Part shown: one piece after another, positions 15,622 to 61,098 of the stretch
Layout: each line of letters starts with the position of its first letter
How positions within the stretch are numbered: the first letter of the stretch is position 1
Source of the DNA: Candidatus Jorgensenbacteria bacterium GW2011_GWA1_48_11
Lineage (GTDB): Bacteria; Patescibacteriota; Minisyncoccia; UBA6257; GWB1-50-10
Length of the DNA: 64,000 nt
Assembly: GCA_001003475.1 (NCBI GenBank)
Contig: LCPF01000001.1
Coordinates: 328,549-392,548, forward strand
Reading direction: 5' to 3'
Notes under the pieces: generated by a model
Told to the model about the DNA's origin: nothing
Database searches by the model: none
What the model saw: the letters and a program-made list of their open reading frames with translations, nothing else
Program-made: the position numbers and the translations under genes

Positions 15622-18309
15622 ATGAAAATTGAGGATTTTAGAAGCAAAATAGCTGATCTTATTCAAAAATATGAACGCGCTAAACAGTCAGGTTTAGTGA
15701 AGAAATATAGCGAAGAAGAGACAAAAAAGGATTTTATTTTGCCCCTTTTTGAGGCATTGGGTTGGGACGTTCGCGAAAAAAGAGAAGTTTCTGCTGAGGA
15801 AAAAATATCAGGAGATCGTGTTGATTATGGTTTTTATATCGACGGCCATATTAAATTCTATCTAGAAGCAAAACCATTAAGAGCAGATATACATAAGGAA
15901 GAATACGCTAAGCAAGCCATAAAATATTCTTGGAATAAGGGCGTTACTTGGGCAGTTCTTACCGACTTTGAAAGTCTTATCGTATTTAATACGCAAGACG
16001 TAAAGGCTTCTCTAGCGAGTAAGTTACTTTTTGAGATTCCATACAGTGAATATCTAGAACGATTCGACCAATTATCGCTTTTGTCTCGAGAATCTTTTAA
16101 AGAGAATTCTATCGATGATTGGGCTGAAAAAAATGGTAAAAAGTTTCAAAAAGTCCCGATTACTGCACTTCTGTATAACGATCTAAACGAATGCCGTGAA
16201 ATGCTTACAAAATCACTTGTTGCTTGGAATCCAAATCTCAAAAAAGATAGAAAACTTTTAGACGAAGGCGTCCAGAAATTATTAGATCGCCTTATTTTCT
16301 TGAGGGTAGCAGAAGATCGTGGCATTGAGCCACCTACACTTATTCCACTTTTACGTGAATGGCATTCCCGTAAGGATAAAAATGAAGTTCCATTATACGC
16401 TCATATGGTTAAAAAGTTTAGGGATTTGGACAAAACTTATAACTCTAATTTATTTTCTGAGCATCCATTTGAAAAATGGGAAGAATATGGAGATGCCACA
16501 GAAGAAGTCATTAAAATTTTATATGGTAAACCCGGTTATTATGAATATGATTTTAAAGTTATGCCTGCCGATATTTTGGGTACGGTCTATGAAAATTACC
16601 TCGGCTATAAGCTTTCTCAATCGAAAAAAGGAATTGATGTTCATAAAGATGCGAAGAAGCGCAAAGAACAAGGTATTTATTACACGCCTCATTTTATTGT
16701 TGAGTATATTGTTAAGAATGCACTTGGTCCTGTTTTAGATAGATGTGAAACAATTGAGGATCTAAAAAAAGTTAAGGTTCTGGATCCTGCTTGTGGTTCT
16801 GGTTCTTTTCTTGTTCAGGCACTTGAACTTATTAATGAAAAATATAAGCGGATGGGCGCGCCCGGCAACATTTTTACAAAAACCCAAATTCTTCTCCTAA
16901 ATATTTTTGGCGTTGATTTGGATGAACAAGCGGTTGAAATTGCTCGTCTTAATCTTTTAGTAAGCGCTTTAGATGGTAAAAATCCTTTACCCAAACTTGA
17001 TCAGAATATTAAATGTGGTAATTCTCTTATTTATGGTACTGATGCCGAATTAAAAAAGTATTTTGGTACGACCTTTAAGGATCAAAAACCCTTCAATTGG
17101 GAAGAAGAATTTCCCGATGTATTTGAGAAGGGTGGTTTTACCGTAGTAATTGGGAATCCGCCGTGGGGAGCGAGCATAGATAAGTTTAATAAGAGCTTTT
17201 ATAAAGATTTCTTTGTTTCTGGTAAGGGAATAATAGATACATTCGCATTATTTATAGAGAGATCACTTGGTCTTTTGAAAGAAGAGGGATATTTGGGTTT
17301 TATTCTCCCCGATATCGTTTTGTTGAAAAATTATCCTCAGATAAGAAAATTTATTTTGGATAATTGTCTTATTAAAAATCTTTATTATACAGGTATGGCG
17401 TTCCATGGTGTCAATTTAGATTCTGTGATTGCAATTTTAAAGAAGGAAAAATCAGAGGGAAAAAGGAATGAAAATTATATAGAAATTATTATGGACAGTA
17501 GGGAGAAAAGAATTAAACAACAACTATTTTTAAATAATTCTGATTATAAATTTAATTTATATTTCGATGACTACATCATTAAACTGAAAAATAAAGTAGA
17601 TAGTCAATCAATTAAGTTGGGGGGTTTGTTAGAAATTCATGAAGGAATACACTCTGGAAATATTAGGGATAAATTATTTTTGGATTCGCGATTGTCTAAT
17701 AAGTGCCAAAAACTTTTATTTAAAGGTGTTGAGGTAGAACGATATTTTGAAAAATGGGGAGGAAAATTCGTGAATTATGATAAAAGCATTATCAATAAAA
17801 CGGCAGGTAATTATGCAAACCTAGGTAAAGAAGAATATTTTTTAAGCAAAAAGATATTAGTTAGAAGAACCGGTGATAGGATTATTGCTACGATTGATAA
17901 CGATAAGTATTTCGTGAGTAATAATTTTTTTGTTTTGTATTATAAGAAATCTTTAAAAGAAGAAATTGATTTAAAATGTATTCTAGCGATTCTAAATTCC
18001 AAACTAGGAACATGGTATTTTACTGCAATTCAACCTCGTAAAGGGAAGTTATTTGCTGAAATTAAAATTAATCATTTAGCAGAGATCCCTATTTCTAAAA
18101 AGCGAGAATTCGATAAGATTTTTGTACTAGTTGATCAAATGTCTGAATCGCAGAAGAAATTTCATATCACTAAAGAGAATTCAAACGACTGGGAACGATT
18201 AGAATCCGAAATTGAAAAAACCGACAAGAAAATAGACGAAGAGATATATAAGCTTTACCGCCTTACGCCGGAGGAGATTAAAATAGTAGAAACAACAATA
18301 AAGGATTAA
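15622..18309 (+). CDS. Type IIG (MmeI-like) restriction-modification enzyme: N-terminal nuclease fused to a gamma-class N6-adenine methyltransferase and TRD
   Basis: HsdR-N/Mrr-like N-terminus (EEETKKDFILPLFEALGWDV), MTase motif I (VLDPACGSGSFLV) and motif IV (GNPPWG). 895 aa. Located in a ~33% GC island. Confidence 0.75.
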   Translation: MKIEDFRSKIADLIQKYERAKQSGLVKKYSEEETKKDFILPLFEALGWDVREKREVSAEEKISGDRVDYGFYIDGHIKFYLEAKPLRADIHKEEYAKQAIKYSWNKGVTWAVLTDFESLIVFNTQDVKASLASKLLFEIPYSEYLERFDQLSLLSRESFKENSIDDWAEKNGKKFQKVPITALLYNDLNECREMLTKSLVAWNPNLKKDRKLLDEGVQKLLDRLIFLRVAEDRGIEPPTLIPLLREWHSRKDKNEVPLYAHMVKKFRDLDKTYNSNLFSEHPFEKWEEYGDATEEVIKILYGKPGYYEYDFKVMPADILGTVYENYLGYKLSQSKKGIDVHKDAKKRKEQGIYYTPHFIVEYIVKNALGPVLDRCETIEDLKKVKVLDPACGSGSFLVQALELINEKYKRMGAPGNIFTKTQILLLNIFGVDLDEQAVEIARLNLLVSALDGKNPLPKLDQNIKCGNSLIYGTDAELKKYFGTTFKDQKPFNWEEEFPDVFEKGGFTVVIGNPPWGASIDKFNKSFYKDFFVSGKGIIDTFALFIERSLGLLKEEGYLGFILPDIVLLKNYPQIRKFILDNCLIKNLYYTGMAFHGVNLDSVIAILKKEKSEGKRNENYIEIIMDSREKRIKQQLFLNNSDYKFNLYFDDYIIKLKNKVDSQSIKLGGLLEIHEGIHSGNIRDKLFLDSRLSNKCQKLLFKGVEVERYFEKWGGKFVNYDKSIINKTAGNYANLGKEEYFLSKKILVRRTGDRIIATIDNDKYFVSNNFFVLYYKKSLKEEIDLKCILAILNSKLGTWYFTAIQPRKGKLFAEIKINHLAEIPISKKREFDKIFVLVDQMSESQKKFHITKENSNDWERLESEIEKTDKKIDEEIYKLYRLTPEEIKIVETTIKD

Positions 18310-18338
18310 AATTACGTTTAAGGCTATTAGAAAATAGT

Positions 18339-19232
18339 ATGAAAAACAGAATTCAAAAAATTCAAAAGTATTTAGAAGGAAAGAATATTAAGAACAAGCT
18401 TATTTCTAAAAATAAGTCAGATCATCTTCTTATTAATGGTGATTGTGATGAGGTAATGATGTTATTGCCCGAAAAGAGTGTCGATCTAATCATTACTGAT
18501 CCGCCGTATAATCAATCTCTAGATTACGGATTACGTTTTAATGATAATAAAAGCTGGGCGGAATATTATGCATGGTTGGAGCAAAAGCTTTCACAGATTC
18601 CAAGATTACTAAGTGATAAAGGAAGTTTCTATTTAATAAGTTATCCAGAAATTAACGCGCGAATATTACCATTTCTTGAGGATAGACTAAAGCTAAATTT
18701 CAGACGTTGGATTACTTGGCATTATCCAACAAATATTGGCCATTCATATAAAAATTTTACAAGAAGCCAACGCTCGATACTCTTTTTTACTAAGAGGGGA
18801 AAAGGATACGTTTTTAACCAAAAAGAAATCATACAACCATATAAGAATCCTACTGCTCCCGTAATTAAAGAACGCTACCGTCTGGGTTATAAAGGAAGAG
18901 CCGCTTACGATGCACTAGGTTTAGAGGATTTGATAGAGATAGATTTGCTTAAGAATAACTCTCCAGAAAGATTTCGAAATATTGATTCTAAATTTGTTTC
19001 TTTAGATAACAATAAGGAAAAGCTTAAAAAAATTGATCACCCATGCCAATTGCCGCTTAGTTTATTGGAGCTATTTATAAAAGTTAGTAGTAAATCAAAT
19101 TCTGTGATATTTGATCCTTTTGCTGGCACGTTCACCACGTCAGCCGCCGCAGCGAATTTGGGCAGAAATTCTATAGGAGTGGATTTAAATCCTAAATTTA
19201 TTAAATTTGGTGTTAAGAGATTAAAAAAATAA
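18339..19232 (+). CDS. DNA methyltransferase, beta class (N4-C or N6-A; DPPY before FxGxG)
   Basis: Motif IV (DPPYN) precedes motif I (FDPFAGTFTTSAAA). Confidence 0.8.
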   Translation: MKNRIQKIQKYLEGKNIKNKLISKNKSDHLLINGDCDEVMMLLPEKSVDLIITDPPYNQSLDYGLRFNDNKSWAEYYAWLEQKLSQIPRLLSDKGSFYLISYPEINARILPFLEDRLKLNFRRWITWHYPTNIGHSYKNFTRSQRSILFFTKRGKGYVFNQKEIIQPYKNPTAPVIKERYRLGYKGRAAYDALGLEDLIEIDLLKNNSPERFRNIDSKFVSLDNNKEKLKKIDHPCQLPLSLLELFIKVSSKSNSVIFDPFAGTFTTSAAAANLGRNSIGVDLNPKFIKFGVKRLKK

Positions 19233-19234
19233 AA

Positions 19235-20983
19235 ATGACTGGAGAAGAAGAATTAAAAAGTCTATTAGGATCTCTTGGTTTTAATGTTTTTGTATTTGAT
19301 GAGGGAGATGATAAAAGTGGTATTACCATACAACGCACGAAAGATCAGGAGCCTTGTGAAATAGATGCTATAGCTATACACGAAAACGTTATTATCTTAA
19401 TTAACGCTTATAGAGGTTTACGCAGTAGAAAGGCGTTTGATAAAATACCTGATTTTTTTCGACAACTAAGATATTTAGACACCCCTGATAAACTAAATCT
19501 AGTTGTTAGTAATCAGAAATTACCAGCTGGTAATAAAAATTTAAAATCCATAGGTCTTATCAAAGACCTTATACAAAAAAGTTCTTATGATTGGTTACTT
19601 ATAAAATTAGCATTTTCTCCAAACGTCCATATTCCCATCGGGAAAATTGAACTTAATAATCAGGAGATAATTTTTGATAAAAAACATAACGATTATTTTG
19701 GATATGGTATAGAAAATATAGGAGGAGAATACATGAGACAAGAATTTCTTTATTTTCTTAAGATTAAAATGCGGGAATTCAAACGTTTAAAGGGAAGTAG
19801 AGTTGGTGATGAGCCGGAGTTAACTGCAGATTTTCAAAGTATAGAAACTAAATTGAATGATAATCAGACAATGTATTCAACTAGTGTTTCTGTAAGTGAT
19901 ATTATTCCTTATATTCAGGTGTTGCGAGTTGCCGATGAATATAATGAACAGGCATTTCAACGAATGATAAATGGGGAAATTATAAAAAGAATTTCCAATG
20001 AGTATCTTAATAAAAATAAATCTTTCCCCAATAATATAATTCTTGCCTTTAATCCAGATATATATAATCATGGACGCGCTATTAATTTCGCAGGAGCTAA
20101 AAGAATAAAGTTTTATAAGGAGTTTGGTTCGCTAATCGTCATAGATGGACAACATAGATTACTTGCTCACCTTTTAGAAAAAAATAGAGATTATCTAAAA
20201 TCAGTTTTGGTAAATGTAATTTTATTTGAAACTAAAGATAGAGCTAAAGCATTTGATCAAATGGCTGAGTTGTTTTATCTCATTAATACTAAACAAAAGA
20301 AACTTACATCTCTGGTGTCGTTAAGAATACGTTCCAAAATTATTCCTTCCGATATGGAGTCAATATGGTATAGGGTTTTTGAAAAATTAAATAACATGGA
20401 TCAAAGAGACAATTATCTTTTTGAAAAAATTTCATTTGATGAAAAAGAAATACGTAAAGAGAAAAACGGGATTAATATAAGTAGTATAATATCTTATTCT
20501 GGCCTTAAAAGGATTTCTAATGGAGTAAAGAAAGGGAAAAAGAATTTAATAGGCTTAAAAGATATTTATTTACAGCAGGTCGTATTTAAGAACGAAGAGC
20601 AATTTTACGAAAATTTTGTTAGAAAATATTTCAGTATTATTGGAGAAATAATCGATAGAAATACAAAAATGGCGGCTCGTGATTTCGGTGGTTTATTAAG
20701 AATAGCAATACATTTCTTAAATGATTCTAAAACAAAAGATGTATTTAAAAACTTTGCTTTGGAAAATAATGCATTGCCTACAAAAATCGTTGAAGATATA
20801 AAAAGCTATTTTATTAGGATACCTTTTAATAAACTTGATCAATTAGAATATGGCGCTAATGCGTGGGCAATAATGGAAGGTTTTTTCCTTGGGAATATTC
20901 GAAAACATCATAGAGGATTTGGTATTTCTTCACTGTTGAGTAAAAAAGGACAGGCGGCAATGAAGAAAGGCAAAAAGTTTTAA
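19235..20983 (+). CDS. DGQHR-domain protein (DndB/DpdB-like ParB-fold) with an N-terminal nuclease-like region
   Basis: An exact DGQHR motif (SLIVIDGQHRLLAHL) sits at about residue 300. The start is only 3 nt downstream of the MTase stop. 582 aa. Confidence 0.65.
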   Translation: MTGEEELKSLLGSLGFNVFVFDEGDDKSGITIQRTKDQEPCEIDAIAIHENVIILINAYRGLRSRKAFDKIPDFFRQLRYLDTPDKLNLVVSNQKLPAGNKNLKSIGLIKDLIQKSSYDWLLIKLAFSPNVHIPIGKIELNNQEIIFDKKHNDYFGYGIENIGGEYMRQEFLYFLKIKMREFKRLKGSRVGDEPELTADFQSIETKLNDNQTMYSTSVSVSDIIPYIQVLRVADEYNEQAFQRMINGEIIKRISNEYLNKNKSFPNNIILAFNPDIYNHGRAINFAGAKRIKFYKEFGSLIVIDGQHRLLAHLLEKNRDYLKSVLVNVILFETKDRAKAFDQMAELFYLINTKQKKLTSLVSLRIRSKIIPSDMESIWYRVFEKLNNMDQRDNYLFEKISFDEKEIRKEKNGINISSIISYSGLKRISNGVKKGKKNLIGLKDIYLQQVVFKNEEQFYENFVRKYFSIIGEIIDRNTKMAARDFGGLLRIAIHFLNDSKTKDVFKNFALENNALPTKIVEDIKSYFIRIPFNKLDQLEYGANAWAIMEGFFLGNIRKHHRGFGISSLLSKKGQAAMKKGKKF

Positions 20984-21014
20984 TATTATTATTGTTTCTA
21001 GCTTTAGTTATATC

Positions 21015-21055
21015 GAAGCCTGCGCAAAGTGCGCGGGCTTCATTATTTTATATTT
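21015..21055 (+). terminator. Hairpin terminator at the end of the RM operon
   Basis: A GAAGCCTGCGC/GCGCGGGCTTC stem followed by an A/T-rich run. Confidence 0.4.
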
Positions 21056-21075
21056 TGGCGGCGGATTTGACGATT

Positions 21076-21501
21076 TTATTTTGAATAAGGAATTATATTT
21101 TCTTCCAAGAACATTCTTATTTTTGAAAGATAAAGATCTTTTTCTTTTGGTTTGCTTTCCGCGATTTCAACTGCGAATCGGTAGAGCTCGTTGTTCGAAA
21201 CCTTAAGCCACTTCCGGTTTTTGAAGAGAAAAACCAAAAGCGTCATTACCGCTAACCGCTTATTGCCGTTCTCGAACGGATGATTTTTTATCATCAAATA
21301 AAAAAGGATAGCTGCCTTCCCGGTTAATTTCCGATAAAGCGGCTTGCCGTACGTTTGGAACGGCGTTTGAATGTAGCTTTCAAGAACATTCGGGAACCTC
21401 GTGCCAAAGTCCGGTATTGGCTCATCGAAGGTCATCAATTCCTTGGCTAGCCTGAAAGCAGTATATTCAACCTCTTTTAAGTTGATTATTTTTATCTTCA
21501 T
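21076..21501 (-). CDS. doc: Doc (death-on-curing) family toxin, Fic fold
   Basis: Fic/Doc motif HPFENGNKR. Overlaps the upstream antitoxin gene by 4 nt (ATGA). Confidence 0.85.
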   Translation of the reverse strand: MKIKIINLKEVEYTAFRLAKELMTFDEPIPDFGTRFPNVLESYIQTPFQTYGKPLYRKLTGKAAILFYLMIKNHPFENGNKRLAVMTLLVFLFKNRKWLKVSNNELYRFAVEIAESKPKEKDLYLSKIRMFLEENIIPYSK

Positions 21502-47262: not shown

Positions 47263-47979
47263 ATGGCTCTGATCGAAGTCAGCCGTCTTGAAAAGATATA
47301 TGCCGACGACGGCGTCATGACGCCGGCGGTGCGGGGCGTGACTTTTGAAGTTCAAAAAGGGGAATTTGTGGCGATCATGGGTCCGTCGGGTTCCGGCAAA
47401 TCGACCCTGCTCCACGTCCTGGGTTTTCTGGACCGGCAGACCGCCGGTTCTTACCGTTTTAGCGGCAAAACCATCGATGATTATTCGTCCAAAGAATTGG
47501 CTCGAGTGCGCAACAAGGAAATGGGTTTTGTTTTCCAGACTTTCAATTTATTGGCGCGGATAAACGTTTTGGAAAACGTGAAACTGCCTTTGCTTTATTC
47601 GGGCATCAAAGAATCGTTGTGGGATCACATGGCTAAGGAAGCCATTGAAGCCGTCGGCCTTTCCCACCGGCTGGAACACGAATCAGCGAAGCTCTCGGGC
47701 GGCGAAAAGCAGCGGGTGGCGATCGCCCGAGCCCTGGTCCTGAATCCGCAGGTGATTTTCGCGGATGAGCCGACCGGCAACCTCGATTCCAAATCCGGCC
47801 AGGCGATCATGGAAACCCTCCAGCATTTGAACGAGGAGCACGGCCACACCGTGATCCTCATTACCCACGAGACTTACACGGCGGAACACGCCCAAAGGAT
47901 CATCCATATTTTGGACGGAAAAATAGACAGCGATGAAAAAGTCGACCGGCGCCGCAAAAGCAACGAATTTTCAAAATGA
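47263..47979 (+). CDS. ABC transporter ATP-binding protein (MacB/LolD-type)
   Basis: Walker [13 protein letters not shown] signature [15 protein letters not shown] and Walker B. Confidence 0.9.
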
Positions 47980-49217
47980 CGCTGAAATACAGTTTTAAAA
48001 CAGCCTTAAACGGCCTCAAAACCCACAAGTCGCGTTCGGTTTTGACGATTTTGGGCATCGTGATAGGCATCATGGCCATAATCCTCGTGATGTCTTTGGG
48101 CCAGGGCGCGCAAGACCTGATATTGGGCCAGATACAGGGCCAGGTCAGTTCGAGCGTCATCGAAATCGCTCCGGGCCGGCAGCCGAAAGGACCGACGGAT
48201 TTTCTATCCATGTTTTCCGACTCTTTGAAGCAAAAAGACCTTGAAGCGCTCATGAAAAAAAGCAACGTGCCCCACGCGGAAAAGATCATGCCCTTGGTTT
48301 TTGGCAGCGAGAGCGCCGTTTACGGCAGTGAGACTTACCAGGCGACGCTTTACGGAATGACCGACGCCGCCGGCACGATGTACAACGTTTATCCGGGCGA
48401 CGGCCGATTCATTACCGAAGAAGACGTGAAGAGCTATGCCGATGTCGTAGTCCTGGGTTCGAAGGTGAAAGAGGAGCTTTTCGGCAACGATAGCGCCGTC
48501 GGCCAGAAAATAAAGATAAAAGGAAGAAATTTCAATGTCGTCGGCATTCTGGCCAGCAAGGGGCAGGGGATGATCATTAGTTTTGACGATACGGTGATCG
48601 TCCCGTACACCACGGCCCAACGCTACATCTTGGGCATAAAGTATTTCAATCACATAATCATTCAGGCTGACTCCGACGCCAACGTTCCGGAGACCGTGAA
48701 CGACATAAAAATCACCTTGAGGAATTCCCATAACATTACCGATCCGGCCAAAGACGACTTTAACGTGAACAGCCAAGCCGATGCCTTGAAGATGGTCAGT
48801 ACGATTACCGATGCGCTCACGCTTTTTCTGGCGGCCATCGCCACGATTTCGCTTTTGGTTGGCGGCATCGGCATCATGAATATCATGCTTGTTTCGGTGA
48901 CCGAACGGACGCGGGAAATCGGTTTGCGCAAGGCCTTGGGAGCGACCGAAAGCGACGTTTTAACCCAATTTCTTTTGGAAGCCGTGATTTTAACGGCCAT
49001 CGGCGGCATTATCGGGATTTTCTTGGGCGCATCGCTTTCATTTTTGACTTCCTTGGTGCTGAGCAATGTTTTGGCCACGAATTGGGCTTTTACTTTTCCG
49101 GTCGGTGCGGCGATCCTGGGCTTGGGCGTGGCGGCTTTGGTCGGCTTGATCTTCGGCCTTTATCCGGCCCGCCAAGCCTCCCGCAAGAGTCCCATTGAGG
49201 CTTTAAGATATGAGTAA
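47976..49217 (+). CDS. ABC transporter permease (FtsX/MacB family)
   Basis: An N-terminal TM helix, a large periplasmic domain and three C-terminal TM helices. Overlaps the ATPase gene by 4 nt. Confidence 0.85.
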   Translation: MTLKYSFKTALNGLKTHKSRSVLTILGIVIGIMAIILVMSLGQGAQDLILGQIQGQVSSSVIEIAPGRQPKGPTDFLSMFSDSLKQKDLEALMKKSNVPHAEKIMPLVFGSESAVYGSETYQATLYGMTDAAGTMYNVYPGDGRFITEEDVKSYADVVVLGSKVKEELFGNDSAVGQKIKIKGRNFNVVGILASKGQGMIISFDDTVIVPYTTAQRYILGIKYFNHIIIQADSDANVPETVNDIKITLRNSHNITDPAKDDFNVNSQADALKMVSTITDALTLFLAAIATISLLVGGIGIMNIMLVSVTERTREIGLRKALGATESDVLTQFLLEAVILTAIGGIIGIFLGASLSFLTSLVLSNVLATNWAFTFPVGAAILGLGVAALVGLIFGLYPARQASRKSPIEALRYE

Positions 49218-49249
49218 AATTATTTTTCATGGAAGTCTGGTTCGACTTG

Positions 49250-49280
49250 CCCCGTACCAACGCGTAGCTTCGGTGCGGGG
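49250..49280. repeat. Short GC-clamped palindromic element (CCCCGTACC...GGTGCGGGG), a member of the family seen at the uvr locus
   Basis: The ends match the termini of the elements at 54981, 56990 and 60161. Confidence 0.4.
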
Positions 49281-49302
49281 TTGAAGCTTTGCGCTACGAA
49301 CA

Positions 49303-52973: not shown

Positions 52974-54980
52974 TTGCAGATGGATAAATTTAAACTGATT
53001 TCAAAAAATAAGCCCGCTGGGGATCAACCCAGGGCAATAAAAGAGCTGGTTAACGGCCTCTCGAAAGGTTTGAATCGTCAAACGCTTTTGGGCGTGACCG
53101 GTTCGGGCAAGACCTTTACTGTGGCGAACGTGATTGCCGAAACCAATCGGCCGACATTGGTTATTGCTCATAACAAAACCCTGGCGGCCCAGCTTACGAA
53201 CGAATTCCGAGAGCTTTTTCCCCAAAATTCCGTGAATTATTTCGTTTCTTACTATGATTATTACCAGCCCGAGGCTTACATTCCCACGACCGACACTTAT
53301 ATCGGCAAGGAAGCGATGATCAACGATGAGATTGACAAGCTGCGGCATGCGGCGACAACGGCCCTGCTCACGCGGCGGGACGTAATCGTGGTGGCCTCGG
53401 TTTCCTGCATTTACGGCTTGGGCGCGCCCGAGGTTTACGCCGAAAACATCTTTCATTTCAAGATTGGTGACAGGATTAAACGGGCGGAATTCGCCAAAAA
53501 ACTGATTGAACTGCAGTTCAGCCGGACCAACGCCGATCTCACGCGCGGCACCTTCCGTCTGCGGGGCGATAACTGGGAGATCATGCCGCCGGACAGGGAA
53601 TTGATTTACAATTTCGAGCTCAAGGACGATACGATTCGGAAGATCTACGAGATCGATCCGGTTTTGGGCTTCGTTCCGGAAAAGACGAAAACCTTGCCTA
53701 AGCTTTACATTTCGCCGGCCAAACATTTCATTACTCTCACGCCGGAGCGGGAACGGGCTATCAAGGCTATTAGGGAGGAATTGAAAGAGCGGCTGAAATA
53801 TTTCGAGAAGAACGGCAAATTATTGGAAGCCGAAAGGCTGGAGCGCCGGACAAAATTCGACCTGGCTATGATCAAGGAGGTCGGCTACTGCCACGGTATC
53901 GAGAATTATTCCCGCCCCTTGTCGGGCCGGGCGCCCGGCGCGCCGCCGGACACGCTTCTGGATTATTTCCCCGATGGTTTTTTGACGGTGATCGACGAAT
54001 CACACGTTTCAGTGCCCCAGATCCGGGGAATGTATGAGGGGGACGCTTCGCGCAAGAAGACGCTTATCGAATACGGTTTCCGGCTGCCTTCGGCCGCCGA
54101 TAACCGGCCTTTGCGCTTCGCTGAATTCGAGAAAAGAATCGGCCAGACCGTTTTCACCTCGGCCACGCCCGGCCCTTATGAAAGAAAAACGAGCGCGAAA
54201 GTGGTGGAGCAGATCATTCGGCCGACCGGCCTCATTGACCCCGAAATCGTGATGAAGCCGGTGAAGGGCCAGGTGCCGGATTTGATCGCGAGAATAAAAG
54301 AAAGAGCCGACAAAAAGGAAAGGGTGCTCGTGACGACCCTGACCAAGCGGATGGCCGAGGATTTATCGGCTTATCTCGAGGATTTGAAAATCAAGGTTAC
54401 TTATTTGCACAGCGACGTGAAGACTTTGGATCGGATCAGGATTTTGACCAGTTTGCGGAAAGGGGATTTTGACGTTTTGGTCGGCGTGAATTTGTTGCGG
54501 GAAGGCTTGGACTTGCCCGAGGTGTCCCTGGTGGCGATTCTGGATGCGGATAAGGAGGGGTTTTTGCGAAGCGAGACTTCCTTGATCCAAACGATCGGCC
54601 GGGCGGCCCGGAATGTTCGCGGCCAGGTTCTGATCTACGCCGACCATATCACCGGCTCGATCGAGCGGGCAGTCGGTGAGACCGAACGCCGGCGAAAAAT
54701 CCAGCTTGCCTACAATAAAAGGCACCGGATCACGCCCAAGACCATTATTCGGGCGATTACCGATATTTTGCCGACCGAGGAGATTTTGAAATTGGAAATG
54801 AAACCGATTCCGAAATCCAAGAAGGCTCTAGAGCAAACAATAAAAGACAAAGAAAGGGAGATGAGAAATGCTGCAAAACGTTTGGATTTTGAGTTAGCTA
54901 CTATATTGAGAGATGAAATTAGGGCTTTGTCTAAAAATTTGAGTCCAGCTGGACGAAAAATTTTTAGTAACAAAATCTAA
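52974..54980 (+). CDS. uvrB: Excinuclease ABC subunit B. The probable true start is 52980 (MDKFKLIS). The last ~37 codons are AT-rich relative to the gene body.
   Basis: Helicase motifs ([10 protein letters not shown]), beta-hairpin and a C-terminal UVR domain. Confidence 0.9.
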
Positions 54981-55058
54981 CCCCGTCACTAAAAGAGCAT
55001 TATTAAAAATCGCTCCGAGCGGAAGCTCGCAGAGCACAATGCTCTTTTTGGTGCGGGG
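54981..55058. repeat. GC-clamped palindromic element, copy 1
   Basis: Arms CCCCGTCACTAAAAGAGCATT ... AATGCTCTTTTTGGTGCGGGG. They are exact reverse complements of the arms of the copy at 56990-57066. Confidence 0.6.
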
Positions 55059-55060
55059 TG

Positions 55061-55144
55061 CGGGAAGCGGCTAAGCGGCTGGATTTCGAACTGGCGGCGA
55101 TTTTGCGGGATGAGCTTAAGGAATTAAGCAGGAAAATAAAATAA
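55061..55144 (+). pseudogene. Displaced duplicate of the uvrB 3' end (27 codons plus stop) with its own terminator
   Basis: Translates to [27 protein letters not shown]. It matches the current UvrB C-terminus ([22 protein letters not shown]) but uses GC-richer codons. The terminator at 55148-55180 follows. Confidence 0.6.
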
Positions 55145-55147
55145 AAC

Positions 55148-55180
55148 TCCGCCGCTCAAGAGAGCGGCGGTGAGACGTTT
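55148..55180. terminator. Terminator hairpin CCGCCGCTC-AAGA-GAGCGGCGG, bidirectional between the uvrB remnant and a minus-strand gene
   Basis: A 9-bp perfect stem. Confidence 0.55.
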
Positions 55181-55189
55181 GCGGCGGCG

Positions 55190-55558
55190 TTAGGCATTGC
55201 AGTAGCGGGTATACCAGGCCCGAGCCGCCTTTTCGATGATCTCGCGATCGGCCCGCTCTTCGAGAAGCTGGTGGGCGGCAAGAGGAGAAAAGGAAAGGTC
55301 AAGCGTCCGGAAGTGCGGCGACCGCCAGGCGCAGAAGCCGAGCGCTTGCGCCTGGGAGAGGGTAGTGTGAAATTCCTTGTAGCGTCCGGTGACGGGGTCG
55401 CGGTAGAAGAAAGCTAATTCGTCGCGCAGAATTTCGAGGGCGGCCGGGAGCGCTTTTTCCAGTTTGTCCCCGTCAAGGCCCATTCTCCCGCTGAGTTTCG
55501 CCATTGCGGCCAGGAGAGCGAGCACGATGTCGACATTCTGCTGTTCTGGAGTCGGCAT
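55190..55558 (-). CDS. Hypothetical protein (122 aa), GC-rich cargo gene
   Basis: Ends at the bidirectional terminator. No motif recognised. Confidence 0.5.
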   Translation of the reverse strand: MPTPEQQNVDIVLALLAAMAKLSGRMGLDGDKLEKALPAALEILRDELAFFYRDPVTGRYKEFHTTLSQAQALGFCAWRSPHFRTLDLSFSPLAAHQLLEERADREIIEKAARAWYTRYCNA

Positions 55559-55716
55559 TCTGACCTCACGGAAGAACGTGGGAACGTCAAGATGGCTGAT
55601 TTCATTATTCGATTTTTTTCAAAAAAGACAAGCTTTTAAAAGCGAAAATCTCCCGGCAGAGGGCCTGCCGGGAGATTCGGATGCGGTGGGAAATTCGTTT
55701 AAGCGGCGGTCCGGTT

Positions 55717-56649
55717 CTAAACCATTTCCGGCTTGAAGCCGGTGGCCCAGCCGGATTGCCCGGAGCCGCCGCCGAAAAGGCAGAGCTCGAGCGAAAGCGT
55801 CTTCTCGCGCTTGAGGTAGCTGAAGCAGACGGTGCGTCTCGGTCCGTTTCCGTCCGTGACGATCTGGTTGCCGCCGCAGCCGACCGTGAGATTCCGGCCG
55901 TTCACGAGCCGTTCGGGGTGGGTGAGGAGCGTGGCGGTGACGCACACCAAGTCCAGGTGAAACTCGTTCTCCATGAACCTGGCGATGCTGCCCTTGGCCG
56001 AGTCGCCGCCGTGCTGACGGCCGAATTGGCCGTCGATGACGAGGATCGGGTTGCCTTCCTGATCGTCGGCGACGGCATCCAGGGCTTCGGCGGTTTCGGG
56101 CGCGATGAAGATCTGGTCCGGCGTGATCGTCATGTCCGGATCGATCTCGAGTCCCCGCTTCTTGCCGAGAATTTCGACCAGGTGCCGGACGACGGCGCAG
56201 TAGCGGCTCCGCGGGTCGCGGAATCGGTTGAAGAAGGTGCCGCTGAGGTGTTGATGCCAGGGGACGGCGAACTTGCCTTCGGCGCCGATCGAAACGTCTG
56301 CCGCGAGCCTGTTCTCGATGAAGGCGAGGGTGCCCTCGACCGGGAGGTCGAGAAGCTGGCCGAGTTGGATCGCCTGCTCGGCGATGTCCCGCAGGCGGTA
56401 GCTCGCGGGGTAGGCGTTGGGGACCATCTGCTGGATCGCGTCGAATGGTCTCGATACGCCGAGGTTCGCGATCTCCCTTCTCACGATGGCGGCGAGTGCG
56501 GGGAAGTGCTTGAGGACGTTTCGGATCTGGCTGTCGTGGCCAGCCAGATCCTTCTCGGCTTGCCGGCCGAGGCCCTCCATGAGCTCGCTCAGGGTTGCTT
56601 CGGTCGCGATGCCTTCGAGGGTGGGGGCTAGCGTGGCGGTCATTATCAC
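55717..56649 (-). CDS. Hypothetical protein (310 aa), GC-rich cargo gene
   Basis: The minus-frame composition is diverse. The plus-strand ORF 55681-56631 is Ala/Gly/Asp/Arg-rich and is rejected as antisense. Confidence 0.5.
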   Translation of the reverse strand: MIMTATLAPTLEGIATEATLSELMEGLGRQAEKDLAGHDSQIRNVLKHFPALAAIVRREIANLGVSRPFDAIQQMVPNAYPASYRLRDIAEQAIQLGQLLDLPVEGTLAFIENRLAADVSIGAEGKFAVPWHQHLSGTFFNRFRDPRSRYCAVVRHLVEILGKKRGLEIDPDMTITPDQIFIAPETAEALDAVADDQEGNPILVIDGQFGRQHGGDSAKGSIARFMENEFHLDLVCVTATLLTHPERLVNGRNLTVGCGGNQIVTDGNGPRRTVCFSYLKREKTLSLELCLFGGGSGQSGWATGFKPEMV

Positions 56650-56950
56650 CAGTCCTTTATATGGGTGGTTGGGCGGACGACTGCCGTTAGAATTCCCTTT
56701 TACCTTATTGTCAAATCAAAGAGCGGTAATATTATATTTCTAATTCACGTTTTTGTCAAATCAATTTCTCTTTTTTGCTTTGACTTTCCCGGTTTCGAAC
56801 CTTAAACTGGTGATACTACCCCCCGTGACCTTAAGAAGGGGGACGGTTTCTTGTTTAGTCGTCCGCCTTCTCTAAAAGCTTCGGCGGGATGCTCATAATT
56901 GTAGTGAAATTTTCTTCGCTATAAACTATGAGCTAGAAAATTTCAACAAT

Positions 56951-56992
56951 TATGGCACAGGATAAAATAATCATTAAAGGCGCCCGCGAGCA
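56951..56992 (+). pseudogene. Displaced duplicate of the uvrA 5' end (ATG plus 13 codons)
   Basis: Translates to [14 protein letters not shown], against the current uvrA start [13 protein letters not shown]. It is GC-rich in codon use and abuts element copy 2. Confidence 0.55.
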
Positions 56993-57066
56993 CCCCGCAC
57001 CAAAAAGAGCATTGCTTGCTTCGGCTACCGCCGGCAAGCCTTTGAAAATGCTCTTTTAGTGACGGG
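56990..57066. repeat. GC-clamped palindromic element, copy 2 (inverted relative to copy 1)
   Basis: Arms CACCCCGCACCAAAAAGAGCATT ... AATGCTCTTTTAGTGACGGGG. Confidence 0.6.
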
Positions 57067-57084
57067 GCAGGCAATCTTAAACAT

Positions 57085-59601
57085 ATGCAAGATAAAATCA
57101 TTATAAAAGGAGCAAGAGAACATAACCTGAAAAATATAAATCTCGAGATCCCGCGCGATAAGATGGTGATTTTTACGGGTCTTTCCGGTTCGGGCAAGTC
57201 TTCTTTGGCCTTCGACACGATTTTTGCCGAAGGCCAGCGCCGCTATATCGAGTCGCTCTCGGCTTATGCCCGGCAGTTTTTGGGCCGGCTCGACAAGCCG
57301 GACGTGGATGAGATTGACGGCTTATCGCCCGCGATCTCGATTGACCAAAAAAGCCATTCTTCGAACCCGCGCTCGACCGTGGCGACGATCACGGAAATCT
57401 ACGATTATCTGCGGGTGCTTTTTGCCCGGGCCGGCAAGCCGCATTGCCCGATTTGCGGTCTCGAGATTAAAAAAATGACGAATGAGGAGATAGTGGACGT
57501 CGCCACCGAGGTGTACAAAGAAAATGTTTCCCGGAAAAACATGGTGGTTTTGGCGCCGGTCGTGCGCGGCCGCAAAGGCGAGTATTACCAGATGCTTTAC
57601 GATTTTTTGGGCGCCGGGTTTTCCGAAGTGCGGGTGGACGGCATTTTCATGTCGTTGCGCGACCGAATCGAGCTCAGCCGTTACAAGATCCACAGCATTG
57701 ATTTGGTCGTGGATCGGTTGCCGGCCGGACTTGATTTCGGGACCAAGGAAAACCGTTTGCGTTTGGCCGAAGCCGTGGAGACGGGGTTGAAATATGGCCA
57801 CGACGTCGTGACCCTGATTACCGACAAAGAAACCTCCCTTTCGGCCAAATTCACCTGCCCCCACGACGGTTTTTCTTTTCCGGAGATCGAGCCGCGGCTT
57901 TTCTCTTTCAATAGTCCCTACGGGGCGTGCCCGGCCTGCAACGGCTTGGGTACGGAAACCGTCTGGTCGGAAAAGATCTGCCCGGTTTGTTTGGGAAAAA
58001 GATTGCGGCCTGAAGCCCTGAACGTCCTCATTAATAAGAAGAACATCGCGGCGACCACGGCTTTTTCCATCGCCGAGGCTTATGATTTTTTCAACAAGCT
58101 GGAATTGACCGGCAAAAACACTTTTAAGGAGATTTCGGAAGTGCCTTTGCGCGAGATTAAGAACCGTTTGAAATTCATGATCGACGTCGGTTTGGATTAT
58201 TTGACCCTGGCCCGCAAGGCCGGCACCCTTTCGGGCGGCGAAGCCCAGCGTATCAGGCTGGCTTCCCAGATCGGTTCGCGCTTGACCGGCACCCTATATA
58301 TCCTGGACGAACCGACGATCGGTCTCCACCAGCGGGATAACGCCAAATTGATCCGGACGCTTCATGATTTGCGCGATTTGGGCAATACCGTGATTGTCGT
58401 GGAGCATGACGAGGAGACCATCTGTTCCGGCGATTATCTGGTGGACATCGGCCCGGCGGCCGGGGTCCACGGCGGAAAAATCGTGGCGTACGGCAAAATG
58501 CCGGAGATTATAAAAGACAAAAACCAAAATTCGCTTACCCTGGAATACCTCCGTGGCAAGCGTTTTATTGAAGTGCCGTCACGTAGGCGGAAAGTGACGA
58601 AAGACCACGATTTTTTGAAGATCAAGGGCGCCGCCGAAAATAATCTTCAGAACATCGACGTCAACGTTCCTTTGCGGCGGTTCACGGCCGTGACCGGCGT
58701 TTCCGGCTCGGGCAAAAGCACTTTGGTTTACGACGTGCTCTATAAGACTTTGGCCAATAAATTCAACGGCGCGGCTTACAAGGCCGGTGTTCATAAAACC
58801 ATGACCGGTCTCGAATACGTCAATCGGGTGGTGAATATTGACCAGTCTCCGATCGGCCGCACGCCCCGTTCCAATCCAGCGACCTATGTCGGCGCCTGGA
58901 CCTTCATTCGGGATCTGTTTGCTTCGACTGAAGACGCCCGCGTCCGCGGCTATAAGCCCGGCCGGTTCAGTTTCAACGTCAAGGGCGGCCGCTGCGAAAA
59001 CTGCGAAGGCCACGGCTTGATTGCGATCGAGATGCATTTCCTGCCCACGGTTTACGTGGTTTGCGACATTTGCAAAGGCAAGCGTTTCGACCGGGAAACC
59101 TTGGCCGTGGAATACAAAGGCAAAAATATTTATGACGTGCTTCAAATGACGGTTGAGGAAGCGGTTAGTTTTTTCGAGGACATTCCCTGGCTGCATGACC
59201 GGCTGCGGGTTTTGAACGAAGTGGGCTTGGGCTATCTGGAACTCGGCCAGTCGGCCACGACCCTCTCCGGCGGCGAAGCCCAGCGTATTAAGCTTACGGC
59301 CGAGCTCGGCAAGCGCGACACCCGAAAAACGATCTATCTTTTGGATGAACCGACGACGGGCCTTCATTTCGCCGACGTGGACAATTTATTGAACGTTTTG
59401 AACCGGCTCGTGGAGCGGGGGAATACAATTGTCGTGATCGAGCATAATTTGGACGTGATCAAAACCGCGGATTGGGTGATCGATCTGGGGCCCGAGGGCG
59501 GGGACAAGGGTGGCCGGATCGTGGCCCAAGGTACGCCCGAGGACATTTCCAAAAAAAACGGCAGCTTTACGGCCGAATATTTGAGGAAAGTTCTAAAATA
59601 A
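57085..59601 (+). CDS. uvrA: Excinuclease ABC subunit A (838 aa; the insertion domain between the zinc-finger pairs appears to be absent)
   Basis: Two ABC modules ([24 protein letters not shown]), zinc fingers and the UvrB-binding region are present. The protein is about 100 aa shorter than typical UvrA. Confidence 0.9.
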
Positions 59602-59738
59602 TCCCTCACCCTTCAAAGATAAGAAGCTTAATCGATAAACCGATTTATGAACTCATTAGAAAACAATATTAGTCTAAAAAGGTCTTTATTGATCAAAGAT
59701 TACTTCCTTAGAAGTGTAATCTTTGAAGGGTGAGGGAT
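59601..59738. repeat. 138-bp MITE-like element with perfect 20-bp terminal inverted repeats, lying exactly between the uvrA stop and the uvrC ATG
   Basis: ATCCCTCACCCTTCAAAGAT at 59601-59620 is the reverse complement of 59719-59738. The right terminus supplies GAAGGGTGAGGG and then the ATG of uvrC. Confidence 0.55.
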
Positions 59739-61098
59739 GGAAAAGCTTTATAAAAATTTGCCTGAGACGCCCGGCGTTTATCTGATGAAAGACGCCGCCG
59801 GCCGGATTTTATACGTCGGCAAGGCCGTCAATCTGCGGCGGCGGGTGGCGAGTTATTTCACGTTTACCCGCCGAAGCGAAGGCGAAGGAGGGCGGTCCCC
59901 CGCCGTCGCTTACGCTTTGGCGGGCAAGCATGATTTGCGCTTGGAAAAATTGGTCCGGGAGATAAAAAAAATAGATCTTAAGAAAACCGATACGGCTTTG
60001 GAAGCATTGATTCTGGAGTCGGCGCTCATAAAAAAACACCAGCCGCCCTGGAATATCCGGGAAAAGGACGATACGAGTTTCCTCTATGTCGGCATCACTG
60101 ATGATTATTTCCCGAGAGTAATTTTGGTACGAGGTAAGGTTATAAAAGGGAAGGCGCTTGCCCCGTCACTAACCGAGCGCTACCAAAATCGCTTCGCGCG
60201 GAAGCGCGAAGAGCGCGGTGCTCGGTTTAGTGCGGGGTTCGGGCCGTATACTTCAGCTTCGGATATCCGGGAGGCCCTAAGGATCATCCGCCGGATTTTT
60301 CCCTTTAGTACTCATTCGGCCGAAGCCATCGGTAAATTTAAAAGACCTTGCTTTGACTATCAGTTGGGTTTGTGCCCGGGTACTTGTATCGGCATCATTG
60401 ACCGTGGGGATTATCTCAAGAACATCAAAAACATAATTTTGCTTTTCCAGGGTAAAAAAAAGGAAATTTTGAAAAATCTTCAGTCGGCCATGAAATCGGC
60501 TAGCAAAAAGCTGGAATTCGAAAAAGCCGGGAAAATCCGCCGTCAGATCTTCGCCTTGCAGCATATTCAGGATACTGCGCTCATCACGGATGGGCGAATT
60601 CAAAATTTAAAATTTAAAATTCAAAATTCCTTCCGGATTGAAGGGTATGACATATCGAATATTTCGGGGCTCTCGGCCGTGGGGAGCATGGTGGTTTTTT
60701 CCGCCCAAGGCGGACCAGCCTCGGGCAGGATATTAAAGCCGGACAAAAACCAATATCGGAAATTCAAAATCGGCACGGTTTTTGGCTCTAATGACACGGC
60801 TATGCTTGCGGAAATGCTGGGTCGCCGGTTGAACCACCGCGAATGGCCCTTGCCGGATCTGTTCCTGATCGACGGCGGCAAGCCCCAAGTGAACGCCGTT
60901 CGCTCGGTTTTGGACGAATTTGGATTGCAACTGCCCGTCGTGGGCATTGCGAAGGGCGCAAAGAGGAAGAAAAACGAATTTATCGGTCCGGTGCCGAAAG
61001 AAATCGGTGAAAAAACCCTGATTCAGGTTCGGGATGAAGCTCATCGTTTCGCCGTGAGTTATCACAAAAAATTAAGAAGTTATAGCTCTCTGTTATAA
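59737..61098 (+). CDS. uvrC: Excinuclease ABC subunit C, short form (453 aa: GIY-YIG, UVR and RNase H-like endonuclease domains, no C-terminal (HhH)2), with an in-frame palindromic-element insertion
   Basis: GIY-YIG motif (GVYLMKD...YVGKA), UVR motif (FEKAGKIRRQIFALQ), endonuclease motifs (IEGYDISN, LIDGGK). Confidence 0.8.
   Translation: MEKLYKNLPETPGVYLMKDAAGRILYVGKAVNLRRRVASYFTFTRRSEGEGGRSPAVAYALAGKHDLRLEKLVREIKKIDLKKTDTALEALILESALIKKHQPPWNIREKDDTSFLYVGITDDYFPRVILVRGKVIKGKALAPSLTERYQNRFARKREERGARFSAGFGPYTSASDIREALRIIRRIFPFSTHSAEAIGKFKRPCFDYQLGLCPGTCIGIIDRGDYLKNIKNIILLFQGKKKEILKNLQSAMKSASKKLEFEKAGKIRRQIFALQHIQDTALITDGRIQNLKFKIQNSFRIEGYDISNISGLSAVGSMVVFSAQGGPASGRILKPDKNQYRKFKIGTVFGSNDTAMLAEMLGRRLNHREWPLPDLFLIDGGKPQVNAVRSVLDEFGLQLPVVGIAKGAKRKKNEFIGPVPKEIGEKTLIQVRDEAHRFAVSYHKKLRSYSSLL
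60161..60237. repeat. GC-clamped palindromic element, copy 3, inserted in-frame within uvrC
   Basis: CCCCGTCACTAACCGAGCG...CGCTCGGTTTAGTGCGGGG. It is translated as APSLTERYQNRFARKREERGARFSAGF with no stop. Confidence 0.55.

Follow-up and report, generated by a model that had tools for sequence, protein, structure and literature searches.

The junction between uvrB and uvrA in Candidatus Jorgensenbacteria bacterium GW2011_GWA1_48_11, a lineage of the candidate phyla radiation (CPR)/Patescibacteria, contains two independent small insertions, which face each other by coincidence of gene order. Each insertion joins a replacement terminus to the gene and carries a conserved hairpin, and the native terminus lies displaced on the far side of the hairpin. 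Both probably belong to a class of small, polar cassettes without an open reading frame (ORF), which is widespread in the CPR/Patescibacteria and consists of a replacement terminus, a linker of 0–53 nt, and a conserved hairpin of ~75 nt. The working replacement copy fused to the gene body is designated A′, and the displaced native copy is designated A. The analyzed stretch of DNA (the window) comprises 64,000 nt (GCA_001003475.1, LCPF01000001.1, positions 328,549–392,548 of the forward strand), and coordinates refer to it unless another locus is named. The features of the junction are as follows.

52974–54980, plus strand: uvrB ORF (listed start TTG at 52974; public gene call from ATG at 52980)
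52974–54861, plus strand: uvrB gene body, native
54862–54980, plus strand: replacement uvrB 3′ end (A′) with stop codon, composite
54981–55058, plus strand: hairpin copy 1 (covariance model, 81 bits)
55059–55144, plus strand: displaced native uvrB 3′ end (A) with its own stop codon, detached from the gene
56952–56992, plus strand: displaced native uvrA start (A; ATG GCA CAG GAT … GAG CA)
56993–57067, minus strand: hairpin copy 2 (covariance model, 77 bits)
57068–57084 and 57085–57122, plus strand: linker and replacement uvrA start (A′; ATG CAA GAT AAA ATC ATT ATA AAA GGA GCA AGA GAA CA)
57085–59601, plus strand: uvrA ORF
57123–59601, plus strand: uvrA gene body, native

All expected domains are present in uvrB and uvrA, and both genes are complete. 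The original prediction had described AT-rich gene ends outside, GC-richer duplicates of the same termini inside, and two inverted palindromic elements enclosing a GC-rich segment, and these observations were reproduced with slightly refined coordinates. The GC content is 0.32 at the uvrB end (54870–54980) versus 0.52 in its gene body, and 0.29 at the uvrA start (57085–57126) versus 0.54. The inner duplicates have their own stop codon (uvrB, 55059–55144) and their own ATG (uvrA, 56952–56992), and the segment between them (55145–56950) has 58% GC. The palindromes (54981–55058, plus; 56993–57067, minus) have arms that are exact reverse complements of each other (25 nt at 100% and 27 nt at 93%), and their centers differ. 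The window contains each 21-nt arm exactly two times, whereas the mean counts in dinucleotide shuffles were 0.00 and 0.02, and two matches were reached in 0 of 100. The two centers form the same two-part apical stem via compensatory changes (folding z about −6). In copy 1, A54980 is paired with T55059, and the arm with the bulged T (CCCCG-T-CACTAA) is directed toward the working uvrB. Copy 2 is inverted relative to copy 1, with the same arms and another center, and its bulged-T arm is directed toward the working uvrA. In silico deletion of 54862–55058 (197 nt) yielded the canonical native uvrB end in a continuous frame, and deletion of 56993–57122 (130 nt) yielded an uninterrupted native uvrA. 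The expected empty-site joins would be …GGGAGA followed by TGCGGGAAGCGG for uvrB and …CGCGAGCA followed by TAACCTGAAA for uvrA, and the expected circle or excision join would be …GGTGCGGGG followed by TGAGAAATGCTG.

UvrB of the window matched protein P0004, which bears the name Candidatus Jorgensenbacteria GW2011_GWA1_48_11, with 100% identity and was found on 11 contigs. Exact look-ups of UvrB and of a 310-aa protein encoded between the hairpins gave matches only after switching to the public start codons. Among the matches listed, a 2.8-kb region is 100% identical in contigs of three samples (two from ENA and one from JGI), and this identity across three independent assemblies excludes an assembly artifact, which had been named as a possible refutation. 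A chimera of GC-rich and AT-rich strains at a shared repeat thus has a practically negligible probability. The reading frames are intact, and the same architecture is present in metagenome-assembled genomes (MAGs) of many studies. The point in its favor is L052 (scaffold ANAN16-1 … scaffold_2806), a real chimera in which the uvrB genes of two related strains are joined across an N-gap and the break lies inside the hairpin; this locus was set aside, and the hairpin element evidently confuses assemblers where related strains co-occur. The search with the UvrB tail gave fragments only, and L051, an ordinary uvrB end, was also set aside.

The enclosed 1.9 kb is native DNA, and the foreign parts are 54862–55058 and 56993–57122. 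The GC content at third codon positions (GC3) is 0.71 (about 0.7) in the gene bodies, 0.23 and 0.08 in the outer uvrB and uvrA termini, and 0.64 and 0.58 in the respective inner termini. The relatives L007–L011 have adjacent uvrB and uvrA genes and no hairpin, and represent empty sites. The inner uvrB piece is 77–85% identical to these relatives versus 67–71% for the outer one, and the inner uvrA start is 82–91% identical versus 70–76% for the outer one. The features of the enclosed segment are as follows.

55149–55170, minus strand: terminator-like hairpin of the 122-aa gene, native
55190–55558, minus strand: gene for a 122-aa protein, native cargo
55717–56649, minus strand: gene for a 308–310-aa protein, native cargo
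56731–56971, both strands: divergent promoter region, native (6 promoter-like sites versus 1.1 ± 1.0 in shuffles)

The hairpin at 55149–55170 had been taken as a terminator behind the duplicate uvrB stop codon. It scores as a terminator on the minus strand only and therefore ends the enclosed 122-aa gene, not uvrB. In the promoter region, a perfect minus-strand promoter, TTGACA-17-TATAAT (56759–56731), serves the 310-aa gene, and plus-strand promoter-like sites, including 56943–56971, precede the old uvrA start. The 122-aa protein had no family match in any library scanned. The 310-aa protein had no match in Pfam, PDB, PADLOC, or NCBIfam; its family, which has no name, comprises 621 representatives, and its modeled core has a C-type-lectin-like fold, the fold type of the variable proteins of diversity-generating retroelements (DGRs). 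One homologue adjoins a DGR. The protein was rejected as a mobility enzyme because of this modeled fold and the unrelated contexts of its homologues.

An alternative reading is that the 1.9-kb GC-rich segment is a single island between inverted palindromes, carrying the uvrB end and the uvrA start of another genome. Perfect 25-nt inverted repeats are present on both sides, the GC content of the segment is 0.58 versus a window average of 0.49, and the enclosed genes are rare or unknown. We consider such an island very unlikely. The inner termini match the host codon usage and the closest relatives, whereas the outer termini do not, and the native genes are restored by removing the outer modules, not the inner segment. 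Together with the normal divergent promoters and terminator of the inner segment, these facts indicate that the inner DNA is native. The uvrB–uvrA spacer of the relatives is also occupied by variable cargo, namely other small genes, and the module alone is found at at least 15 other loci. Hence, one part of the original prediction stands, namely that the outer AT-rich termini are replacements that keep both uvr genes intact, with a palindrome at the junctions; the other part, in which the enclosed 1.9 kb is the inserted unit, does not.

As single modules of a hairpin and a replacement terminus are present at many other genes and genomes, the junction is explained by two independent insertions and not by one bounded island. 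Inversion or gene conversion between the two hairpins, which was the other explanation offered at the outset, is highly improbable. It is true that the two copies are inverted and have identical arms. However, the duplications are direct, not inverted, flipping the segment would give no simpler gene arrangement, one orientation is found in all three assemblies, and the single modules elsewhere have the same anatomy with no partner hairpin.

Two further copies are present in the window, one at the 3′ end of a permease gene and one within uvrC.

47976–49217, plus strand: permease gene, MacB/FtsX-type
49195–49217, plus strand: replacement permease 3′ end (A′; ATT GAG GCT TTA AGA TAT GAG TAA, encoding …IEALRYE and stop)
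49218–49245, plus strand: linker, 28 nt
49246–49280, plus strand: miniature hairpin copy (CTTG-CCCCGTACC…CGGTGCGGGG; covariance model R1, 23 bits, E = 0.001)
49281–49301, plus strand: displaced native permease end (A; TTGAAGCTTTGCGCTACGAA = IEALRYE), whose first base is the T directly after the hairpin
60157–60238, plus strand: hairpin copy 3, an in-frame translated 26-codon insert in uvrC (LAPSLTERYQNRFARKREERGARFSAG; covariance model, 86 bits)

The codons of the permease A′ are AT-shifted (GC3 of 0.29 versus 0.69 in the gene body), and in silico deletion of 49195–49280 (86 nt) rejoins the permease frame. The displaced permease end overlaps the start of the next gene, and its stop codon has apparently decayed. 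The uvrC copy was found by a six-frame self-comparison and a repeat search, and it has no flanking duplication. The same uvrC site is occupied in L021, L030, and L035/L047 and is free of the hairpin in L007; altogether, in-frame hairpin inserts in uvrC were found at two sites in five genomes. Inside uvrC, a short rescue is impossible, and the hairpin persists there only as a tolerated in-frame insert.

Other inserted elements were observed in the uvr genes. A second, unrelated palindrome is translated in frame in uvrC of the window (59859–59932; …TFTRRSEGEGGRSPAVAYALAGK…); a similar insert is located at the same place in L021, and it is absent in L007, L030, and L035. A perfect 20-nt inverted repeat (ATCCCTCACCCTTCAAAGAT and ATCTTTGAAGGGTGAGGGAT, 59601–59738) brackets the whole AT-rich uvrA–uvrC spacer. 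Its right arm overlaps the ribosome-binding site and ATG of uvrC, and it looks like another small inserted element. UvrB of L004 (gene 307–2433) has an in-frame insert of 31 residues (KRGSVQIKTRIGADIRVNQRGNPHESASQEG), and UvrC of L007 (9511–10836) has one of about 26 residues. The uvr genes of the CPR seem unusually prone to in-frame insertions.

Patterns from the shared hairpin termini were scanned over genomes and metagenomes, and the covariance model (R1), which came afterward, revealed the miniature copy at the permease gene. The scans gave 14 genome and 18 metagenome matches, five of which were dropped as chance matches. The excluded chance matches to the patterns are L019, L025, L031, L032, and L050, together with L024, which consists of tandem tRNA genes. 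The retained matches come from CPR groups (Saccharibacteria, Harrisonbacteria, Yanofskybacteria, and others) or unclassified MAGs. When 25 distinct copies were aligned, each side had 12 invariant terminal nt, (C/T)TG-CCCCGTCACTAA … TTAGTGCGGGG-T. Double compensatory changes affect eight pairs of the stem, broken pairs are nearly absent, and the fold is the same in all 25 copies. There was no significant strand preference of the fold, and Rfam covariance models over 54000–58000 gave no relevant match at E ≤ 5. Near-identical hairpins are present at different targets in the same genome or sample (copies 1 and 2 here; L026 and L037). In the window, three copies are on the plus strand and one is on the minus strand, the GC skew is uniform, and there is no consistent orientation relative to replication; the copy number appears low (four in 64 kb). 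The 3′ arm contains AGTGCGG, which resembles the core of the Haemophilus uptake signal, AAGTGCGGT, possibly by coincidence.

Related hairpin types were also observed. Arms of the type CCCAGCACTT…AAGTGCTGGG follow the uvrB tail in L004 (2433–2462) and also flank a whole tRNA-Arg gene in L036 (733–832), and the CCCCCACACCTAATGAGGAT… hairpin type is present in L004 as well (8868–8939). In L037, the remnant of a second hairpin 3′ end (AAAAAGGTGCGGGG followed by TTGCACG…) is located in the linker, about 40 nt upstream of the hairpin. This remnant next to tRNA-Val suggests nested or successive insertions, and the displaced piece there was not identified.

Outside uvrC, the anatomy is the same at each resolved locus. 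The working gene is followed by the recoded terminus A′, a short linker, the hairpin, and, from the next base, the displaced native A. Among the non-uvrC loci, 17 are clear, 2 are decayed, and 2 are unresolved. In every resolved copy of this group, A starts at position +0 after the hairpin and always with T, so that the hairpin 3′ base (…GTGCGGGG) is joined directly to A and the junction is a purine (R) followed by T. The bulged-T arm faces the working gene in every case. As A′ completes the gene, nothing is lost by the insertion. The whole modules measure 86–197 nt, and the flanking repeats are 14–110 nt long and diverged. A′ and A usually have only their first 1–4 nt in common, with longer shared starts confined to tRNA sites and to the CIRCE (controlling inverted repeat of chaperone expression) sites. 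In conserved genes, the insertion sites fall within the final ~7–28 or the initial ~5–14 codons; the other sites are in a tRNA or in the CIRCE operator. The targets are as follows.

3′ ends: uvrB, an HtpX-like gene, the MacB/FtsX-type permease, and L040
5′ starts: uvrA, uvrB (L043, decayed), secA, tsaD, gatB, holA-like, and cobO-like
tRNAs: T-loop (L036) and D-loop
Operator: spacer of the CIRCE heat-shock operator (four clear loci and one probable locus)

The CIRCE loci have a complete new operator at one flank and the old half-operator at the opposite one. The sites that recur across genomes are tsaD (L023 and L039), CIRCE, and uvrC.

The old uvrA start now begins a leader ORF of 35 codons (56952–57059), which extends into the hairpin and terminates 28 nt upstream of the new ATG; in L002, this ORF is annotated as a 35-aa gene. 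Likewise, the old start in the 5′-type cassettes, including L018, L022, L023, and L048, opens a leader ORF of 35–48 codons through the reverse-complemented hairpin. The position of the leader stop relative to the new ATG in seven cases is −28, −78, +1, +5, −5, −43, and +20 nt. The stop is thus within 20 nt of the new start in four of the seven, and an ATGA overlap is formed in L022. This arrangement suggests termination–reinitiation coupling, which would give a reason for the intact old starts.

The two copies of each terminus were compared over 106 aligned codons in ten A′/A pairs. The encoded residues are identical at 93 of the 106 codons, and the differences per site are about 1.09 at synonymous (pS) and about 0.10 at nonsynonymous (pN) positions. 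In the 89 same-residue codon pairs compared, the same codon is used in 26, versus 34 ± 3.2 in shuffled pairings (P = 0.007). The codon switches include six-fold classes (AGA↔CGG and TCA↔AGC) and transversions of all kinds, and DGR-type and deaminase-type mutagenesis were rejected as sources of the recoding from this substitution spectrum. At the differing sites, A′ has A or T and A has G or C 58 times, versus 18 times in the opposite direction (P = 5e-6). In 10 of 11 cases, AT-rich hosts included, the GC3 of A′ is below that of the gene body, and A and the adjoining 20 codons are body-like. A is the host's own sequence, and A′ is foreign or long separated from it. Because A keeps its frame and its start or stop codon, it cannot have drifted long enough to saturate the synonymous sites. 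Either both copies must have accumulated their differences as functional genes of separate lineages, or A′ has long existed independently as part of a mobile unit.

The uvrB tail gives direct evidence that the cassettes move. Over the last 75 nt of the window A′ (54906–54980), which include an odd extension beyond the native stop, identity to the tail in L004 is 89%; L004 is a distant AT-rich relative whose UvrB protein is 77% identical. The preceding 45 nt are only 58% identical to L004; this part (54861–54905, the first 45 nt aligned) is recoded and has no close match among the sampled relatives. The L004 tail is a cassette in its own right. It has a short related hairpin behind it and is inserted 15 codons further downstream, and its removal restores the old uvrB end in frame. 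Both uvrB insertion sites (window, 55059; L004-type, 55104) start with TGCGGGA, which resembles the hairpin 3′ end GTGCGGGG, possibly by coincidence. As both sites start alike, the window cassette is an L004-type cassette that was extended leftward by 45 nt. Such a comparison indicates a fixed right end and a variable left end of the cassette. The 89% identity of this tail to that of a distant lineage also implies that cassettes pass from one genome to another and can grow by nesting.

Two other origins of the recoded copies were considered. In the first, transposition of the hairpin makes a long target duplication in situ, and the working copy then diverges by local hypermutation or by selection for dissimilarity. 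The duplication always starts from the exact 3′ end of the hairpin, hairpins are nearly identical at different targets in one genome or sample, 21 identical nt are present in both copies of L028, and codon identity is under the random expectation, all of which would fit an in situ origin. Nevertheless, this origin is unlikely. The synonymous sites are saturated, yet the nonfunctional A keeps its frame, its start or stop codon, and 88% amino acid identity, which is impossible with equal drift time. The transversions of all kinds and the six-fold codon switches are neither of deamination nor of DGR type. In addition, the uvrB tail with its extension past the native stop is common to a distant lineage, and the uvrC copies have no duplication at all. 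Identical direct repeats of 40–110 bp flanking a hairpin are unstable, which is a further difficulty for such a duplication.

In the second, a bare hairpin damages the gene end, and transformed foreign homologous DNA is later patched in by homology-facilitated illegitimate recombination. Bare insertion of the hairpin in coding DNA does occur in uvrC, A′ is foreign, CPR bacteria are thought to be naturally competent, and the AT-rich tract of uvrB may start about 40 nt upstream of the duplication. This two-step rescue is nonetheless quite improbable, a little more so than the in situ origin. Because secA, tsaD, gatB, holA, and the tRNAs are essential, a disrupted intermediate would not be able to persist. 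Rescue is seen in nearly all of the non-uvrC copies, a frequency too high for a second event that should be rare; in most cases, codon usage changes abruptly where A′ starts; and a donor only ~65–75% identical to the recipient is a poor homologous anchor.

Here, we propose a mechanism for the terminus-replacing cassette based on its anatomy. The hairpin may be a recombination site that is recognized by its structure, probably as single-stranded DNA. The enzyme, supplied in trans, would be of the HUH, Xer, or integron-integrase type and would join the hairpin 3′ end to the target. On the left side, the reaction may be completed by a second precise cut or by resolution on the short, highly conserved motif that is split by the insertion. 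The extreme recoding would be kept because direct repeats that resembled each other would lead to loss of the cassette or restore its target. In the 5′-end cassettes, the old start probably still functions as a leader ORF that brings ribosomes through the hairpin to the new start.

Several observations weigh against the proposed cassette and its mechanism. No enzyme gene is attached to the cassette, and none has been identified. Among the neighbors across 28 hairpin loci, only the target genes recur, together with one DGR-type reverse transcriptase (RT) in a single MAG; the window contains no obvious candidate mobility enzyme, and the viral contigs gave one chance match and no family members. 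No circular junction, polymorphic empty site within a species, or ectopic cassette was seen. The only target feature shared by the sites is R followed by T, which cannot explain how the cognate gene is found. The near-identical hairpins at different targets are compatible with transposition as well as with gene conversion, and a matching A′ cannot be provided by transposition alone. The left boundary is placed with a precision no better than about ±15 nt; tRNA stem compatibility was uninformative as a locator of this boundary, and the pairing of the 4 nt 5′ of the hairpin with the target, inspected by eye, followed no consistent rule. The dissimilarity of the two copies is not absolute, as seen in the 21 identical nt of L028. 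Finally, the sample was obtained with exact-match patterns and is biased to well-conserved copies.

As to the advantage of the recoding, the cassettes may act as an ORF-less "home-and-rescue" drive. The hairpin and the retained native fragment would specify the wild-type target for a trans-acting nuclease or recombinase guided by nucleic acid or by structure; in an RNA-guided version, they would form the guide. The recoded rescue terminus would immunize the carriers and keep the essential gene working. This logic is that of the engineered cleave-and-rescue gene drives. The targets are highly conserved motifs in essential genes, and the codon identity between rescue and target is below chance. 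In the tsaD pair, identity over the hairpin 3′ end and the initial ~20 nt of the old piece amounts to 80–97%, versus ~70% for the gene body. On the other hand, the hairpin orientation is inconsistent with co-transcription, no nuclease was found, the old fragment in L004 has decayed to eight codons with one codon apparently lost, and L028 retains its identical stretch in both copies. We regard this drive as a speculative and rather doubtful extension of the cassette.

Elsewhere in the window, an AT-rich island (15622–21501, GC 0.29–0.35) with genes of the defense type encodes a PglX-like adenine methyltransferase, a DGQHR-domain protein, and a Doc toxin, and a second ORF in it resembles a methyltransferase by sequence.

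If the cassette interpretation is true, the CPR/Patescibacteria, which make up a large share of bacterial diversity, carry undescribed selfish or domesticated DNA that inserts into the ends of conserved, essential genes, into tRNAs, and into a heat-shock operator without harm, as it brings a recoded spare part. A strategy in which an element carries its own replacement terminus would then be workable without an encoded enzyme, also at 5′ ends and regulatory sites, and the recoding pattern would be a natural example of the design principle used in engineered rescue-type gene drives. The 12-nt invariant terminus, the defined joint, and the covariance model would offer a handle on a recombinase or nuclease acting on folded DNA. 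The cassettes would also account for compositional mosaicism and for apparent "pseudogenes" of gene ends in CPR genomes. As a warning for annotation, short ORFs and fragments beside these hairpins would be displaced gene ends.

The literature searched contained no earlier description of these elements in the CPR, and the terminus-replacing hairpin cassette is apparently undescribed so far. Several known systems share part of its anatomy. Integrative elements such as prophages and genomic islands also rebuild the displaced gene end, leave the old piece at the far junction, and use tRNA T-loops as targets. However, the cassette has no integrase or cargo, and only a linker and a hairpin lie between the new and old termini. 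As a rule, no identical core of at least 7 bp is present at both junctions, and the far junction is the conserved hairpin base, not a duplex att core. Like miniature inverted-repeat transposable elements, the cassette has a hairpin with terminal inverted repeats, but it lacks a short target-site duplication of fixed length. No autonomous relative bearing a transposase was found in about 390 kb of hairpin loci. Rickettsia palindromic elements (RPEs) are in-frame translated palindromes and resemble the uvrC copy only, whereas 17 cassette loci carry a recoded duplicate terminus and are not simple insertions. RPEs are not known to be associated with duplicated, recoded gene termini.

The hairpin itself resembles integron attC sites and the single-stranded attP of CTXφ in that it is imperfect, with structure conserved over sequence, an extrahelical base, and a variable center. 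As in attC, it is located at the 3′ end of a discrete, polar, promoterless cassette, and the crossover falls at a step from G to T. The differences from attC are the absence of the RYYYAAC/GTTRRRY core boxes, in place of which the invariant ends are CCCCGTCACTAA … TTAGTGCGGGG; the occurrence as single copies without arrays and without intI/attI or a recombinase nearby; and the cassette content, which corresponds to part of the target gene instead of forming an ORF of its own. HUH systems (IS91/ISCR, Helitron-like, IS200/IS605, and REP-RAYT) have in common with the cassettes one fixed hairpin end with variable adjacent donor DNA, no target duplication of fixed length, and a bulged T in the hairpin. 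Unlike IS200/IS605 and REP-RAYT, the cassettes lack a conserved 4–5-nt target motif and have only R followed by T, and no Y1 HUH transposase (TnpA/RAYT) was seen in the 64-kb window and the partial loci. The cassettes also differ from DGRs, as the substitutions between A′ and A are of all kinds and not confined to template adenines, and no RT is present in the window.

The closest functional analogue is a fungal mitochondrial mobile ORF (mORF) with a foreign C-terminus. The mORFs are mobile free-standing LAGLIDADG or GIY-YIG genes that carry a foreign C-terminal segment, as in atp6 of Allomyces and in atp6, atp9, cox2, and nad3 of Glomus (PMC3630166). Their native termini are 91–98% identical to those of relatives, whereas the inserted termini are 64–81% identical in nucleotides with the amino acids nearly unchanged, and this pattern was read as horizontal transfer (PMC3630166). 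An mORF encodes a homing endonuclease, whereas the cassette has no ORF and only the ~75-nt hairpin, and no nuclease gene recurs near the hairpins at the hairpin loci. Moreover, mORFs are found at the 3′ ends of organelle genes, whereas the cassettes are also found at 5′ starts, tRNAs, and an operator, and in bacterial chromosomes. In both systems, however, a diverged inserted terminus is fused in frame near the gene end, and the native one is displaced downstream. The termini of an mORF differ mostly at synonymous sites, with the native one nearer to the relatives, and the same holds for the cassettes.

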